64,000 nt of DNA from contig CASFWA010000001.1 in NCBI GenBank assembly GCA_949298405.1, positions 129,883 to 193,882 of the forward strand. The letters run 5' to 3'. The position numbers were made by a program, and so were the translations under genes. Position 1 is the first letter of the stretch, and each line of letters opens with the position of its first letter. The notes under the pieces are model-generated. The model was not told the origin of the DNA. It was given only the letters and a program-made list of their open reading frames with translations, and did no database searches. The DNA is from an uncultured Pseudomonadota bacterium (GTDB lineage Bacteria; Pseudomonadota; Alphaproteobacteria; Rs-D84). Positions 31,745-62,544 of this stretch are shown here, in pieces.

Positions 31745-32302
31745 ATGCAAAAAGAGTTCTCAGAAGAGAAAGTTTATTCAGATATAAAGTCTGGCTTCGG
31801 TAGTTTTAAGGTTTTAGCAAAAGCGAGTTTGGCTAAAAGGTGGAAAGACTTGTCACGTTCACAAAAATATGACGCGGGCAGGGCGTTGGTAAAAATCGCG
31901 GATGTTGCAAAATACCCTGAAATTTATTTTTCGCGTGCTGCAACAGAAAAAGACTATATGAACAGAATAAAAAATTGGATTGAAAAAAATAATGTTGCAC
32001 CAGAAAATGCAAAATGTGCATTTTATATGGTATGGCGACCTTCGGATTATGTTGTAAATGATGCAGCAAATGCTTTTTGGTATAATGCAGATTTAAGAAG
32101 TGCTTTTTATAGGTTTTGTGATCTGGTTCAAGATTGGGAATATGGCAGAACTGCAGATGGTGAAAAAGGGCGAAGTTCTTTTACATTTTTGGCAGAAAAA
32201 ATAGAAGAAAAAGCAAAAGATTTAAATAAACAAGCAAAAATAAAACAGGCGAATATTTTTGTTCGACCAATTAAGGAATTCCTTTATTCTTTTCAAAAAT
32301 AA
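31745..32302 (+). CDS. Hypothetical protein (orphan with its own promoter and terminator)
   Basis: 185-aa ORF with GGGGGA SD; no recognised motif. Confidence 0.7.
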   Translation: MQKEFSEEKVYSDIKSGFGSFKVLAKASLAKRWKDLSRSQKYDAGRALVKIADVAKYPEIYFSRAATEKDYMNRIKNWIEKNNVAPENAKCAFYMVWRPSDYVVNDAANAFWYNADLRSAFYRFCDLVQDWEYGRTADGEKGRSSFTFLAEKIEEKAKDLNKQAKIKQANIFVRPIKEFLYSFQK

Positions 32303-32328
32303 AAAAACGGGGAAAGTCCCCGTTTTTT
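32301..32328. terminator. Bidirectional terminator (orphan gene / serS)
   Basis: AAAAAACGGGGA-aag-TCCCCGTTTTTT. Confidence 0.85.
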
Positions 32329-33607
32329 AATGTTTGCCACCAATTTTAGTTCTGCCACCCATAAGAGGTTGTAATTTCTTTGGTATATTTACAGAACCAT
32401 CTGCATTTTGATGGTTTTCTATTACAGGTACCAATGCGCGTGGAACTGCAATACCTGTATTGTTTAATGTCGCAACAAATTTAACATCACCCGTTGCATT
32501 TTCACGATATCTGGTATTTGTTCTACGTGCTTGGAATGTACCAATCGAAGAACAACTGCCTAGTTCTTTGTACGCGTTTTCACTTGGAACCCATGCTTCA
32601 ACGTCGTTCATTTTTACTTTGTTGAATCCCATATCTCCTGTCGAATTAGCAATTACGCGGTATGGTAATTCCAGGTCCTCCATTACTTCACAAAGGTTGT
32701 TTAATATATGTTCATGCATTTCGTCAGACTGTTCTGGTTTGCAATATATATATTGTTCGACCTTATTAAATTGGTGGAATCTTGCCAGACCCCTTGTGTC
32801 ACGACCTGCGGCACCGGCTTCTTTGCGGAAGCATGGTGAGAATCCTGCGTATTTTATTGGTAGTGCATTTTCAGGTAGAATTTCACCACTATGTAGCGAG
32901 TTCAATATTATTTCTGCGGTACCTGCCAAGCATCTATCGGTATCTGTTAACATAAATACATCATTATTCATTACAGATAAATCAGAGCCCATAAAGTGAC
33001 CAGCGTCAAATATTGTTTGTGGTTTTGTAATGGATGGGCATTCTATAAATGTAAAGCCTTTGGATATCAATTTCTGTATAACATAAGTTTCTATTGCTAA
33101 TTGTAATTCCGCTGCTTCTCCCATTAAACAATAGGTACGTGTTCCACATATTTGACCGATTTTTTCTGGTAACCACCAATTGTTCATGTCTAATAAGTCC
33201 CACTGTGCACGCGGTGTAAAGTCAAATTTTGTCGGTTCGCCTACACGACGGACTTCCACATTATCACTATCATCTGCGCCAATTGGTGCATCTGGACTGG
33301 GAATTTGTGGAACGCGATGTAATAAATCATTTAGTTTTTCTTCCTTTTCGGCAAGTTCTGCTAAATCTGCAGCAATTTCTTCGCCTATTTTTTTCGATTC
33401 TGCGATTAATGGTGCTTTGTCTGCAGCAGTCGGAATTTCACGAGTTATTTTATTCTTTTCTGCGGTTTTTGTTTGTGTAATTGTTTTTAGTTCTCTTACG
33501 CGTGTGTCTAAGGTTAAGATTTCATCTACATGATCTTCAAAGCCTTTTACTTTACACGCATTCTTTACTGTGTCTGGATTTTCACGAATAAATCGAATGT
33601 CTAACAT
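32327..33607 (-). CDS. serS: Serine--tRNA ligase
   Basis: MLDIRFIREN, GTAE, CFRKEAG..GRDTRGL.R.HQFNKVE, ELGSCS, FQARR, TLNNT. Confidence 0.98.
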   Translation of the reverse strand: MLDIRFIRENPDTVKNACKVKGFEDHVDEILTLDTRVRELKTITQTKTAEKNKITREIPTAADKAPLIAESKKIGEEIAADLAELAEKEEKLNDLLHRVPQIPSPDAPIGADDSDNVEVRRVGEPTKFDFTPRAQWDLLDMNNWWLPEKIGQICGTRTYCLMGEAAELQLAIETYVIQKLISKGFTFIECPSITKPQTIFDAGHFMGSDLSVMNNDVFMLTDTDRCLAGTAEIILNSLHSGEILPENALPIKYAGFSPCFRKEAGAAGRDTRGLARFHQFNKVEQYIYCKPEQSDEMHEHILNNLCEVMEDLELPYRVIANSTGDMGFNKVKMNDVEAWVPSENAYKELGSCSSIGTFQARRTNTRYRENATGDVKFVATLNNTGIAVPRALVPVIENHQNADGSVNIPKKLQPLMGGRTKIGGKH

Positions 33608-33679
33608 TTCTTATGCCCTTAATTGTTTTTTGTTTTTGTAAGAATTGTTTTTGCGATATAAATCGCGATTTTTTATGAA

Positions 33680-33745
33680 TTAATAATTGAAACGTACCCC
33701 AAAAGGGGATGAGTAAGAACTAAAAAAGTAATATTCTTTTATCAT
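33680..33745 (-). CDS. Putative serS leader peptide MIKEYYFFSSYSSPFGVRFNY (21 aa)
   Basis: Hand-translated uORF ending 72 nt upstream of serS; Ser codons AGT TCT (TAC) TCA TCC; homologous to the thrS uORF. Confidence 0.8.
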   Translation of the reverse strand: MIKEYYFFSSYSSPFGVRFNY

Positions 33746-33755
33746 AACAATATAA

Positions 33756-33784
33756 ATCATAAAATATTGACTGAAAAAAAGCAA
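33756..33784 (-). promoter_or_regulatory. Promoter of the serS leader
   Basis: TTGCTT-17 bp-TATGAT, 10 nt before the leader ATG. Confidence 0.7.
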
Positions 33785-33820
33785 TAAAAAATAGGGCGTT
33801 TTCATGGTGATAGAAAAAAA

Positions 33821-33856
33821 TTGCGCCATTGGGGGCTTTATGTTATGCTAAGCCCC
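33821..33856 (+). promoter_or_regulatory. trxB promoter overlapped by an inverted repeat
   Basis: TTGCGC-17 bp-TATGCT; GGGGCTT-N11-AAGCCCC brackets the -10. Confidence 0.55.
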
Positions 33857-33880
33857 GAAAAGATAACTAGGAGATTTTTT

Positions 33881-34792
33881 ATGACAGATATTGTTATGCA
33901 TGACGTTATAATTTTGGGCTCTGGTCCCGCTGGACTTACTGCAGCGCTTTATTGCGCACGCGCAGGAAAGAAAACGCTTGTTCTGGGTGGTGATAGATTA
34001 GGGGGGCAGACCGCAGGAATTGCAGTTCTGGAAAACTACCCAGGTTGGAAAGGAAGTGGCTTAGAACTTGCAGAGTTTATGAAAACACAGGCCGAAACAT
34101 TTGGCGCAGAAATTATTTTTACGTCTGCAAAAAATATTTCCGGTGATGCAGAAAGTGCTTTTAGTATTTTAGCAGATGACGGAAATAGATATGTTGGTAA
34201 AACTGTCATAATTGCAACAGGTGCTTCACCACGTAAGTTGGAAATAGAAGGTGCAAAAGAATTCTTTGGCAAGGGCGTTTCTTATTGTGCGACTTGTGAT
34301 GGATTCTTCTATGCTTATAAAGATGTCATTGTTATGGGTGGCGGAAATTCTGCTTTAAATGATGCTTTGTATTTAGCAGATATCGCAAAAAGCGTAAAGA
34401 TTGTTTATCGCAAAGGTGCGTTTACTCGTGCAGAGGCAGTTTTGCGTAATCGCGTCGCAGAACGTGAAAATATAGAATGCTTATTTAATATGGATTTAAA
34501 GAAAATAGCAGCGTTGCCAGATTCTGATAGATTAGTTGTGACAACTACAGATGATAAAGAAATTGTTTGTGATGGCTTGTTCGTTGCAATAGGGCATGAG
34601 GCAAATACTGATTATTTAACAGAAGATATTCGTCGTGATAATATGGGGCGCTTGATACCAGCAGAATTACCAGAAGGTGTATTTGTAGCAGGTGATGTTC
34701 AGTCAGAACTAAAAATGCAAATCGCAACAGCAGTAGGAACGGGTTGCAGTGCAGGTATGGATGCAATCGCGTATTTAAATTCGCGTGGTTAA
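33881..34792 (+). CDS. trxB: Thioredoxin reductase
   Basis: GSGPAG, GVSYCATCDG, GGGNSA, VFVAGD; AGGAG SD before ATG 33881. Confidence 0.9.
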   Translation: MTDIVMHDVIILGSGPAGLTAALYCARAGKKTLVLGGDRLGGQTAGIAVLENYPGWKGSGLELAEFMKTQAETFGAEIIFTSAKNISGDAESAFSILADDGNRYVGKTVIIATGASPRKLEIEGAKEFFGKGVSYCATCDGFFYAYKDVIVMGGGNSALNDALYLADIAKSVKIVYRKGAFTRAEAVLRNRVAERENIECLFNMDLKKIAALPDSDRLVVTTTDDKEIVCDGLFVAIGHEANTDYLTEDIRRDNMGRLIPAELPEGVFVAGDVQSELKMQIATAVGTGCSAGMDAIAYLNSRG

Positions 34793-34823
34793 TAAAAAGG
34801 TCTGGGAAACAGACCTTTTTATT
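34791..34823. terminator. Bidirectional terminator
   Basis: AATAAAAAGGTCT-loop-AGACCTTTTTATT. Confidence 0.75.
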
Positions 34824-35322
34824 TTTTACTAAAATGTTTTTTTAGAATTTCATATGCGGCAGAAATTTTTGTAAATTCTGTCGTTGCTTTATCTTTTTCA
34901 GATGCTGTGTCTGGATGATACTTTTTGGCAAGTGCACGGTACCTTGCAGAAATTTCACGCCATGATGCACTTATCGGTAATTCAAATGTTTTTAATGCAG
35001 ATACAACATTTGTGGGTAGTTTGCTTTTAGGTGGCATTTTATCAAATGTACCGCGCCCAGTTATAAAATCGTTTAAAAAATTTACATATTCTGCTTCGTC
35101 TGCGTTTGCTTTATTTTTATCTTTAAGCGGTGCACCAAATGTCTGACGTTCCCAATCTGCTTCTATTTCTTCTGGGGTCATATCTGCATAATAATTCCAA
35201 TTCTTATTATATTCAGCAGCGTGTTCTTTGCAGAAAAACCAATAGTCTTTTAATTCGCGCGTCTTGGGTGCACGACAAGTACCAGCCTTGGTACAGCCTG
35301 GATGATCACATTTTTTTATCAT
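34819..35322 (-). CDS. DnaJ-domain protein (alphaproteobacterial type, C-terminal J domain)
   Basis: CDHPGC..G..RAPK..FC.EH..EYNKNWNYY N-terminus; HPD motif in C-terminal J domain. Confidence 0.88.
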   Translation of the reverse strand: MIKKCDHPGCTKAGTCRAPKTRELKDYWFFCKEHAAEYNKNWNYYADMTPEEIEADWERQTFGAPLKDKNKANADEAEYVNFLNDFITGRGTFDKMPPKSKLPTNVVSALKTFELPISASWREISARYRALAKKYHPDTASEKDKATTEFTKISAAYEILKKHFSKK

Positions 35323-36185
35323 ATATCGGATTCCTTTTTATGACCTAACGGATGATGCATTTGTACAGTTTCACGCAATTTTTCTGGCAGGACATGCGTA
35401 TAGATTTGCGTGGTTGATATATCTTCATGCCCAAGCATGGTCTGTATTATTCGTAAATTTGCACCACCTGCAAGAAGGTGGGAAGCAAAAGAGTGACGCA
35501 GAACATGCGGACTTACCCGATGGGGGTCAATCCCTGCAAGAACAGCACATTTTTTCAGAATTTTAAAAAATCCGTCCCGGGTTATATGACCGTCTTTCCC
35601 ATTAGATGGAAACACGTATTTTGATTTTTCATCGTCACGAATGGATAACCATTTTTCTAAAGCATGTTTTGCGCGTTCATGTATCGGTACCATTCTTTCT
35701 TTTGCGCCTTTGCCATGAATTAATAATTTATCACCTAAATATGCGGTCGTTGGCAATTCGCATAATTCTGAAACACGCAAACCTGATGCGTATAATAACT
35801 CTATCATAGCACGAAGTCGAATAGAGTTCTTTATATCACCTGCAGAAGATATTAATAATTCTATTTCTTCAACTGATAAAAATTTAGGAAGTGCACGCAT
35901 TCTTTTTGGTAATTCCAGATTAGATGTTGGGTTTTCTTTTATTATCTTTTCCAACATTAAAAATTTATAAAATCCGCGTAATGCGCTGGCTTTCCTAGCA
36001 ACGGAAGATGCTTTGTCGGGAAGGTCTGATAAATATTTTTGTATGTCTGCGCTTGTTGCACCCATTAAACCGTTCGGTATGCTTTCATCCGCATGACGCA
36101 AGTCACTGGCATAACTTTCCAGTGTTTTTTGACTGCGACCTTTTTCTGCAGAAAGTGCTTCTAAAAAAATATCTATATAGTTCAT
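35319..36185 (-). CDS. xerD: Tyrosine recombinase XerD
   Basis: LYASGLRVSEL, GKGAKER, SPHVLRHSFASHLL, LGHEDISTTQIYTHV; start set at ATG 36185. Confidence 0.9.
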   Translation of the reverse strand: MNYIDIFLEALSAEKGRSQKTLESYASDLRHADESIPNGLMGATSADIQKYLSDLPDKASSVARKASALRGFYKFLMLEKIIKENPTSNLELPKRMRALPKFLSVEEIELLISSAGDIKNSIRLRAMIELLYASGLRVSELCELPTTAYLGDKLLIHGKGAKERMVPIHERAKHALEKWLSIRDDEKSKYVFPSNGKDGHITRDGFFKILKKCAVLAGIDPHRVSPHVLRHSFASHLLAGGANLRIIQTMLGHEDISTTQIYTHVLPEKLRETVQMHHPLGHKKESDI

Positions 36186-42612: not shown

Positions 42613-44118
42613 ATGAGATTCTTTAAATTCGTTTTATGTGCTTTTTTGGCTTTTGGTGCAACGCCGCTTTATGCAGAAAGCTTGTTCTTTGAAGATGAAC
42701 CAGTCCAAGACGGGTTAAATGTTTTTGATGTTTCTGCGACTTTCGCTGATATTTATAAAAAATTAGATAGTGTTAGTTGGGCTGGGAAAAATATAAATGT
42801 AGCCATTGAAAGTTTAGAAAAATTAAATTCTGATGCACATATTGCTGCAACAGATGAACGGGTTGTCCTTGTTTGGAAAGATTCTATAATCGCAAATTAC
42901 CCAAGACCAAAAGCAGGAGATTGGAATGGTTTTGGTGAAATTACAACTGCGCTTGTATTAAAATTACGTGCAAATGACCCTGTGCTTCATAATGCTAGTG
43001 AAAGTGAAATGTATCAGATGGTTGTGGATAGTCTTATGCGCGGCATAGATGAAAATGGAAGATATATATTTTCACGCGAAGCAGAAATAAATGAAGACGG
43101 AAGAATTTTGACAAGTGTTGGATTAGAAGGCGCGCGTGATGAACGTGGAAATTATCGCGTCACAGGAATTTATAAAGATTCCCCGGCAGATACGGCAGGT
43201 ATTCGAGAAGGGGATTTAATTACTGCCATAAATGGATTGTCTGTTGCTTCTATGTCTGATGCGGATTTATCTGGTGTGATGTCTGGCTTTAATTCTGGTA
43301 CTTCTAAATTAAAGTTGTTAACCCCAGCAGGCGGAAAAGATGTTGTATTGCGTAGAGCAACTATTATTTTAGCAGATGCAGATGTTGTTCATCGTAGTGA
43401 CCCAGAAAGTGGTGGCTTGTTAGAAATAGTGGTTCATAAAATATCAGATAATTCTGCAGCAATCGTAAATGAAGCGTTATTATCATATCCTGATATTACA
43501 GGAATTGTTTTGGATTTACGCGCAGCAATAGGAGACGACGAAAAAGCGGCTGCAAAGTTGGCTGGATTATTTATAGGCCCCGAACCTGTATTACGTATAG
43601 TAGAAACAGCACGGGATGAAGTCGAAGTTGTCCCTGGTGGAAAAGCAGTGACAGATGCACCTGTTGTTGTTTTGATGTCTGATATGACGCGGGGTACCGC
43701 AGAAGCAGTAGCCGCGGCTTTTTATGAATATGAACGCGGGGTGTTAGTTGGTACGCCTACTGCGGGTAGTGCGCGAATCGCAACCCGAATAAATTTAGAT
43801 AATGGCGGTGCGTTAGAATTATTGAATAAATCTATTAAGACAGGTAAGGGTAGAAATATAGATGGCCGCGGTCTTTTCCCTATTGTATGTTTGTCTAATA
43901 TTCGTACTTCTTCACAACAACATGCTTTCTTCTTAAATGTTATAAATAATGATTTTAATTCTAAGGATTTTAACCAGGACGATGAAACCAAAGTAGAAGA
44001 TATTAGACGCGGTTGTCCTACGATAACAAGCGGTGCGGATGAAGATGCTTTGGCTTCTGCTGTTGCGGTTAAAATTTTAACTGATAAAAAAGTATATAAC
44101 AAATTATTTGCAGATTAA
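42613..44118 (+). CDS. PDZ + S41 peptidase-like protein, catalytic residues substituted
   Basis: Signal peptide, PDZ (SPADTAGIREGD), GIVLDLR, TRGTAEAV and GTPTAGSA; GGAGG SD before ATG 42613. Confidence 0.75.
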   Translation: MRFFKFVLCAFLAFGATPLYAESLFFEDEPVQDGLNVFDVSATFADIYKKLDSVSWAGKNINVAIESLEKLNSDAHIAATDERVVLVWKDSIIANYPRPKAGDWNGFGEITTALVLKLRANDPVLHNASESEMYQMVVDSLMRGIDENGRYIFSREAEINEDGRILTSVGLEGARDERGNYRVTGIYKDSPADTAGIREGDLITAINGLSVASMSDADLSGVMSGFNSGTSKLKLLTPAGGKDVVLRRATIILADADVVHRSDPESGGLLEIVVHKISDNSAAIVNEALLSYPDITGIVLDLRAAIGDDEKAAAKLAGLFIGPEPVLRIVETARDEVEVVPGGKAVTDAPVVVLMSDMTRGTAEAVAAAFYEYERGVLVGTPTAGSARIATRINLDNGGALELLNKSIKTGKGRNIDGRGLFPIVCLSNIRTSSQQHAFFLNVINNDFNSKDFNQDDETKVEDIRRGCPTITSGADEDALASAVAVKILTDKKVYNKLFAD

Positions 44119-62404: not shown

Positions 62405-62461
62405 ATGATAAAAAATATATTGTTCTTCATTACAACTACAACAACCCCTTTGGGGGTGTAG
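62405..62461 (+). CDS. Putative thrS leader peptide MIKNILFFITTTTTPLGV (18 aa)
   Basis: uORF with five tandem Thr codons (ACA ACT ACA ACA ACC) ending 83 nt upstream of thrS; homologous to the serS uORF. Confidence 0.88.
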   Translation: MIKNILFFITTTTTPLGV

Positions 62462-62544
62462 TTTCTATTTGCGATTTCTTCGCACAGTGCAATAATCAAA
62501 ATAATCTATAAGTTTTAATTTATAAAAAAATAAAGGTTTTTATT

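Follow-up and report, generated by a model that had tools for sequence, protein, structure and literature searches.

A conserved serine-codon leader upstream of serS, and codon-matched leaders before other synthetase genes, in a 0.9-Mb alphaproteobacterial genome

In an uncultured gut bacterium of the alphaproteobacterial order Rs-D84, the seryl-tRNA synthetase gene serS is preceded by a short upstream open reading frame (uORF) whose serine codons run into an RNA hairpin. Comparison among relatives establishes this leader as real and conserved, and it is almost certainly regulatory. We have high confidence that it senses amino-acid supply, or the charging of tRNA-Ser; the strongest evidence for charging as the signal is that the codon matches the synthetase in six genes. 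Ribosomes very probably use the leader to step up production of the synthetase when charged tRNA is low. For the output step, our best model is a ribosome-gated attenuator without a terminator, in which a stalled ribosome would keep Rho from terminating a booster transcript that starts upstream. We give this model an even chance of being right.

Anatomy of the serS leader

The window, a stretch of 64,000 nucleotides, comes from a genome of 898 kb. serS (426 aa) lies on the minus strand at 32327 to 33607, with its ATG at 33607. It was identified by TIGR00414 (413 bits, cut-off 301.65) and is the predicted regulated gene. A preliminary description, made from the window's letters, had listed a promoter, a uORF, Ser codons, two hairpins, a G-free tract and a serS ribosome-binding site (RBS), and all were recovered on the minus strand where it had placed them. 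Promoter P1 (33756 to 33784) consists of TTGCTT (33784-33779), a 17-nt spacer and TATGAT (33761-33756). The uORF ATG follows 10 nt on, at 33745, and the P1 transcript probably starts about 3-4 nt 5' of it. In all 60 serS leaders found in this study, 6-11 nt separate the ATG from the -10 box of a conserved TTGAnT/TAnAAT promoter that precedes it. A second in-frame ATG at 33760, upstream of the uORF start, overlaps the P1 -10 box and should fall outside any P1 transcript.

The uORF, MIKEYYFFSSYSSPFGVRFNY, has 21 codons (33680 to 33745, minus strand, the stop codon ending at 33680). It is predicted to be near-leaderless and lacks a Shine-Dalgarno sequence. Its putative control codons are codons 9-13, AGT TCT TAC TCA TCC (33707 to 33721). 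Four Ser codons had been described as sitting immediately before the hairpin; the four are present, but the last, TCC (33709-33707), overlaps hairpin 1 as part of its 5' arm. Hairpin 1, AUCCCC-UUUU-GGGGU (33696 to 33710, core CCCC-TTTT-GGGG at 33708-33697), is recognised by its local fold and by pair covariation, and is probably an RNA polymerase pause hairpin. Hairpin 2, GCGAT-TTAT-ATCGC (RNA GCGAU-UUAU-AUCGC, 33653 to 33666), was read from the sequence and from the spacers of kin. Next comes the G-free A/C tract with the serS RBS (33608 to 33652), AAGGG being at 33620-33616.

On the other side of the leader a divergent thioredoxin-reductase-like gene (trxB) lies on the plus strand at 33821 to 34792, with its ATG at 33881. 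TIGR01292 is its best match, below cut-off, and it has its own promoter-like site, TTGCGC-17-TATGCT, from 33821 (plus strand). At the 3' side of serS, the hairpin AAAACGGGGA..TCCCCGTTTT (window 32295-32333) resembles a bidirectional terminator shared with a convergent ORF, and weak Rfam sRNA matches there are terminator artefacts.

Judged from this window by itself, the parts of the leader are within chance expectation. Folding of the whole leader was not significant (z -1.11), a generic promoter scan of the window did not list P1, and no Rfam family matched the leader within 32000-36000. The case for the leader being real is its conservation among relatives. All four types of tRNA-Ser (UGA, GGA, CGA and GCU) are encoded in this genome.

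Conservation and loss in the order Rs-D84

After removal of duplicates, 141 distinct serS upstream regions of the order Rs-D84 (Ca. Enterousia-like) were available, and 60 of them carry the leader. Removed before counting were eight exact duplicates among loci L001-L110, further identical upstream regions, and L155, for which no start was found; the truncated L002 has the motif yet was scored as lacking the leader. By rank, the leader was found in 51 of 104 regions of the genus, 5 of 15 from the family's other genera, 4 of 19 from the order's other families and none of three paralogs. In other alphaproteobacterial families, none of the 30 serS loci examined (the 30 best of 91 genomes) showed it. 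Because related genomes are not independent samples, the evidence is weaker than these counts suggest.

Our peptide search pattern demanded S-P/A and thus pre-selected for it. We therefore ran an independent frame test anchored on the DNA hairpin motif alone. At all 58 loci with this motif the Ser register held an open frame starting from an ATG; the other frames scored 3 and 1. Among the five codons that precede the last Ser in the 60 serS leaders, 46% are Ser, compared with 0.8% in thrS leaders, 6.7% in hisS leaders and 6.4% genome-wide. The position of the last Ser ranges from codon 13 to codon 17, and 43 of the 60 leaders have it at 13. A Ser-codon leader peptide before serS, as first proposed from the single sequence, is thus conserved.

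Comparison of the upstream regions of relatives, along the lines of the check proposed at that time, bore this out: the Ser codons are kept, and those outside the stem vary synonymously. Ser occupies offset -1 in 58 and offset -4 in 36 of the 60 leaders, and the codons used at -4 are AGT (23), TCT (6), TCA (4), TCG (2) and AGC (1). The last Ser codon is TCC throughout (60/60), which the search pattern imposed and the stem also needs; the penultimate one is TCA or TCG in 58. The preliminary description further held that tRNA-Ser is sensed across isoacceptors. The leaders give this less backing than was claimed: an AGY codon is present in just 26 of the 60 leaders, so that on codon usage coverage of both Ser boxes is no requirement. 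Codons 2-6 of the uORF are 17% identical between relatives, leaving the N-terminus of the peptide unconserved. Together with the lack of an NCBIfam match, this leads us to reject a functional small peptide as the product of the leader.

The presence of the leader follows the arrangement of the locus. Among L001-L110 with a divergent trxB, nearly all long intergenic regions have it (43 of 45) and the short ones never do (0 of 26); where trxB stands in tandem 5' of serS, it was found in 0 of 20 loci. These 20 loci form one clade (L009, L011, L014-L016, L020, L021, L024 and others), in which trxB is inverted, lies directly 5' of serS and the leader is lost. In a SerS tree, read by eye and with many weak nodes, leader-less clades are nested several times inside leader-bearing ones, which suggests repeated loss. 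The leader is dispensable, since it is missing from 81 of the 141 regions. Some genus members also carry divergent extra SerS copies (33-38% identity; L157-L159; G019:C14, G006:C8) that have no leader.

Hairpins, spacer and a second promoter-like element

The 60 serS leaders share a layout that reads, in order, P1, a predicted near-leaderless uORF with Ser codons 9-13 over hairpin 1, the stop, a spacer with hairpin 2 and often a second promoter-like element (P2), and serS. The local fold of hairpin 1 has a median of -8.65 kcal/mol. Its C-G pair is kept in 43 of 46 ser loci, and two distant loci have a compensatory G-C; the equivalent in hisS leaders shows double changes in 3 of 19 loci, and most cysS leaders lack hairpin 1. 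RNAalifold, run on ungapped hairpin windows, recovered just two (ser) and four (his) pairs, because loop length varies.

The spacer between uORF and serS measures 59-124 nt (median 79). A spacer hairpin of -3 kcal/mol or lower is found in 42 of the 60 serS leaders, with variable arms and loops, and a second hairpin occupies the spacer of every cys leader (19 of 19) and of 24 of the 25 thr leaders. Given the variation in arms and loop length, we reject a protein operator at hairpin 2. In many relatives P2 (TTGCGN-17-TANNAT) lies between uORF and synthetase, the left arm of hairpin 2 doubling as its -35 box; it is clearest in the thrS leaders of relatives. In the serS leader of this genome P2 has decayed and hairpin 2 is retained. 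On a matrix trained on P1, P2 scores below P1 (median 5.5 against 14.3).

Codon-matched leaders before other synthetase genes

A promoter-anchored scan of the whole genome gave 12 candidate rows, five of which are codon-matched leaders. They precede cysS (MILYKFNICCCCCCR; G000:C4, about 43972-44104, minus strand), serS, hisS (..KFHHA..; G000:C5 19232-19371, plus), thrS (..ITTTTTP..) and trpS (..LVWWRR; G000:C6 42517-42649, plus), and the gene identities were confirmed by profile search. The thrS leader, MIKNILFFITTTTTPLGV, has the same design and lies inside the window (62405-62544, plus strand; G000:C1 192287-192426).

In relatives the leader was found at 25 of 27 thr, 21 of 28 his, 8 of 25 trp and 19 of 30 cys loci, after three thr, two his and five trp loci, out of 30 each, had been dropped as partial or lacking a start. 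In thrS leaders 83% of the last five codons encode Thr; hisS leaders have His, trpS leaders Trp and cysS leaders Cys. In all five leader types, otherwise unrelated, the last control codon is at 11-17, and the synthetase start lies 92-111 nt farther on (medians of the five types). TrpS of this genome (G000:C6 42650-43705, plus) is about 35% identical to that of most genus members and 85% to that of one; the sequences suggest that trpS was replaced from outside and that the WWRR leader, like that of L232, was retained.

Two further leaders are of other kinds. The ileS leader, MKQKSIIIIK (G000:C1 78692-78800, plus), has four Ile codons, alternative GC helices and a U-tract terminator. The Ile4 leader with GC stem and U-tract was found at 24 of 30 loci, which are all 24 genus loci examined (L115; relatives L288-L310). 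By its sequence it is a classical-looking attenuator, unlike the five terminator-less leaders. The aspS gene has a T-box-like leader (G000:C1, about 120920-121098, plus; L116/L347; relatives L348-L369), in which a conserved stretch, ACTGACAACC, contains a GAC (Asp) triplet and CAGGG-TGGCACC-GCGC..GCGC-CCCTG resembles an antiterminator. The leader's core motif occurs at 22 of 24 loci, and the Rfam T-box matches fall below gathering (best 45.8 bits, E 5.5e-7). Among Alphaproteobacteria, T-boxes are uncommon.

In this genome we saw no cognate leader before the valS, leuS, metS, lysS, glyS, proS, tyrS, gltX, argS, alaS and pheS candidates, which were named from Pfam matches in this one genome and several of which have approximate start codons. 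Shortly upstream of the metS-like gene (L119) and 3' of a tRNA gene, at about 72200-72270 of G000:C1 (plus), there is a GC hairpin and T-run, which may be no more than the tRNA terminator.

The output step

The preliminary description had read the leader as an attenuator. The leader peptide in that reading is supported, but an attenuator of the thr/his/trp type is not, there being no terminator/antiterminator pair. No intrinsic terminator (GC stem with proximal U-tract) was found on the minus strand before serS, the only terminator-like site being on the opposite strand. Neither hairpin is followed by a canonical U-tract in this genome, and after hairpin 2 the sequence is A-rich. Pairing of the 3' arm of hairpin 1 with downstream RNA was stronger in native than in chimeric combinations in just 21 of 60 leaders, and no conserved duplex sequesters the serS RBS (native uORF-RBS pairing above chimeric in 32 of 60, chance level). 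Neither antiterminator pairing nor Shine-Dalgarno sequestration showed co-evolution at serS. We reject ribosome re-initiation because its gap is 10-11 nt (PMC4833913), compared with 59-124 nt here. A T-box riboswitch (RF00230) had no match within 32000-36000 up to E 5.

In the Rho-dependent model, RNA polymerase from P1 would pause at hairpin 1 until a ribosome loads. When Ser-tRNA is plentiful, the ribosome would complete the uORF and depart, leaving over 100 nt of U/C-rich RNA bare. Rho could load there and end the P1 transcript, probably while the polymerase pauses at hairpin 2. When Ser-tRNA is scarce, the ribosome would stay parked on codons 9-13, with the U/C-rich patch and hairpin 1 beneath it. 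The stretch still exposed would then be too short for Rho, the polymerase would get to the serS start, and translation of serS would protect the transcript. P2, where present, would supply a basal level of the essential SerRS. We infer all of these kinetic steps.

A length gate is favoured by simple subtraction. Allowing for the ribosome footprint and the RBS, some 60-70 nt of the 92-111 nt (medians) would remain free, at the low end of the optimal Rut length of 60-90 nt (PMC12360218). Since most cysS leaders have no hairpin 1, the common factor would be ribosome occupancy and not a structure switch.

The frame test, the codon that follows the gene, the shared geometry, the lack of a canonical U-tract, and the Rho (TIGR00767, 654 bits) and NusG encoded in this genome are all consistent with the Rho model, as is the classical terminator that ileS keeps in the same genus. 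Against it stand a modest C>G bias, the distal U-run after 34 of 60 ser hairpins, the absence of the leader at 81 of 141 loci and the decay of P2 here. The C/G ratio is 2.1 in the Ser uORF patch. Over whole leaders it is 1.22 for ser and 0.83-0.84 for his and trp, compared with 0.93 in 232 control 5' regions, whose 90th percentile is 1.67; the bias of the leaders is weak and codon-driven, and is absent in his and trp leaders.

The same sensor could instead act on translation, although we think this unlikely. A ribosome-free, U-rich uORF would pair with the A-rich/RBS region and hide the serS start, and stalling would free it. The MFE fold of this genome's leader does pair the uORF patch with the RBS, and the predicted near-leaderless uORFs resemble the mycobacterial polycysteine case (10.1101/834739). 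Stalling is also predicted to lower the RBS opening cost by more than 2 kcal/mol in 6 of 8 trp leaders and by more than 1 in 10 of 21 his leaders. In ser leaders, however, the median cost is 6.17 free and 5.88 stalled, with a change above 2 kcal/mol in just 7 of 60, and the chance-level result for native duplexes counts against the idea as well. Among leader types, the trp leaders have the best predicted RBS sequestration.

Also improbable, in our judgement, is that hairpin 1 and its A/U-then-U tail form a weak intrinsic terminator assisted by NusA/NusG, whose folding the stalled ribosome would prevent. U frequencies of 0.73-0.88 at +5 to +7 after the ser stem favour such a tail, as do at least five T within 8 nt after hairpin 1 in 34 of 60 ser and 16 of 25 thr leaders. 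Yet the proximal Us are absent (0.35/0.72/0.25 at +1 to +3), the same rule picks out 1 of 21 his leaders, and hairpin 1 itself is missing from most cys leaders. The stop codon would also fall within the polymerase footprint, making a fed ribosome too late to clear the hairpin.

Promoter interference, which we hold to be quite improbable, would make P2 the productive promoter. A P1 polymerase paused at hairpin 2 would occlude it, and the uORF ribosome would set how often. The fixed spacing of the P2 boxes argues for this. The pattern T[TA]G..-16/18-TANNAT (16-18 nt, peak 17) is found in 31 of 60 ser, 18 of 25 thr, 18 of 21 his and 16 of 19 cys leaders, for shuffle means of 3.1, 1.3, 2.2 and 0.9, and in none of the 24 terminator-bearing ile leaders. 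At several leader-less loci a P2-type element is the sole promoter, and the hairpin there is weaker (median -2.85, n=12, one being the truncated L002, against -6.1, n=26). On the other side, this genome's P2 has decayed, the element went undetected in 29 of the 60 ser leaders and in 7 of the 8 from trp (present in 1 of 8), read-through from P1 would make serS mRNA too, and the kin are not independent.

That there is no charging sensor, and that the conserved TCATCCCC..GGGG acts as an operator bound by SerRS, on the model of E. coli thrS autoregulation, or as a stability hairpin, the ORF being incidental, is very unlikely: the most invariant letters are stem letters as well, but an in-frame ATG at 58 of 58 loci, the synonymous spread AGT/TCT/TCA/TCG/AGC at -4 and a cognate residue that tracks the downstream synthetase in six genes all speak against it.

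In a wider reading, the genome would carry a terminator-less tandem-promoter sensor set, in which five hungry-codon uORFs (Ser, Thr, His, Trp and Cys) gate a P1 polymerase that feeds or occludes P2. We put this forward tentatively and consider it rather doubtful as a whole.

Significance and relation to known systems

A large attenuator prediction study reportedly listed hisS, trpS, thrS, leuS and pheST, and not serS. Our literature searches found no serS leader peptide and, for serine, no characterised leader-peptide attenuator, in keeping with the preliminary description, which knew of none for serS; large prediction tables in supplements could list some. The words serS and seryl are absent from the main text of a paper on hisS-paralog leaders (PMC2965389), and the portion of PMC1183508 considered here contains no serine attenuator. 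Nor did the literature searched yield a paper describing the output mode proposed here. The tandem-promoter sensor set, if true, would give the first serine leader-peptide control of serS together with such an output mode.

In PMC12306168 the order Rs-D84 is described as missing amino-acid biosynthesis and as probably living in dependence on partners, yet its synthetases keep putative amino-acid sensors. This 0.9-Mb gut-bacterium genome holds five leaders without a terminator, besides a classical attenuator (ileS) and a T-box-like leader (aspS). The five share geometry, not sequence, and natural losses exist, which makes them a compact test set for terminator-less regulation by stalled ribosomes. 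Such leaders could act as small biosensors of tRNA charging.

Classical leader-peptide attenuators include trpL, hisL, thrL and pheM-pheST. Like them, the serS leader has a short, conserved uORF with cognate codons entering a hairpin, 5' of an amino-acid or synthetase gene, and a predicted pause-type hairpin over the control codons. It differs in the residue it would sense, Ser, in having no terminator/antiterminator pair, in its predicted near-leaderless uORF and, in many relatives, in an internal second promoter-like element. On these features it lies outside the classical family. Synthetase genes have been linked to leaders elsewhere: trpS and leuS leaders are predicted in Streptomyces (PMC1262725), His leaders precede hisS paralogs in bacilli (PMC2965389), and a small CDS lies before trpS in Caulobacter, where leaderless translation is common (PMC4117421).

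A second point of comparison is the uORF-gated Rho attenuators tnaC, speFL, mgtL, corL and Bordetella cruR, in the last of which a stalled ribosome shields a Rut inside the uORF (PMC12360218). The serS leader resembles them in lacking an intrinsic terminator and in the proposed shielding from Rho by the ribosome, within the uORF as in cruR. Those systems, as described there, sense a metabolite or ion, several via the nascent peptide, whereas in the serS leader the peptide is unconserved, sensing would be by hungry codons and Rho dependence is only proposed.

Terminator-less cys leaders are known (PMC1262725), and the mycobacterial polycysteine leaderless sORFs have been termed a 'Cys ribulon' (10.1101/834739). 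Both that system and ours have a cognate-codon uORF without a terminator, repeated at several loci; the uORF is leaderless there and predicted to be near-leaderless here. The polycysteine system, as presented there, serves one amino acid and several operons through Shine-Dalgarno sequestration; in this lineage five amino acids are each paired with their own synthetase, and sequestration is unsupported for serS.

In Firmicutes, serS is under T-box control. The physiological signal and the target are the same as those proposed here, but in this lineage it is aspS that has a T-box-like leader, and at serS, which has no T-box, the proposed sensor is the translating ribosome.
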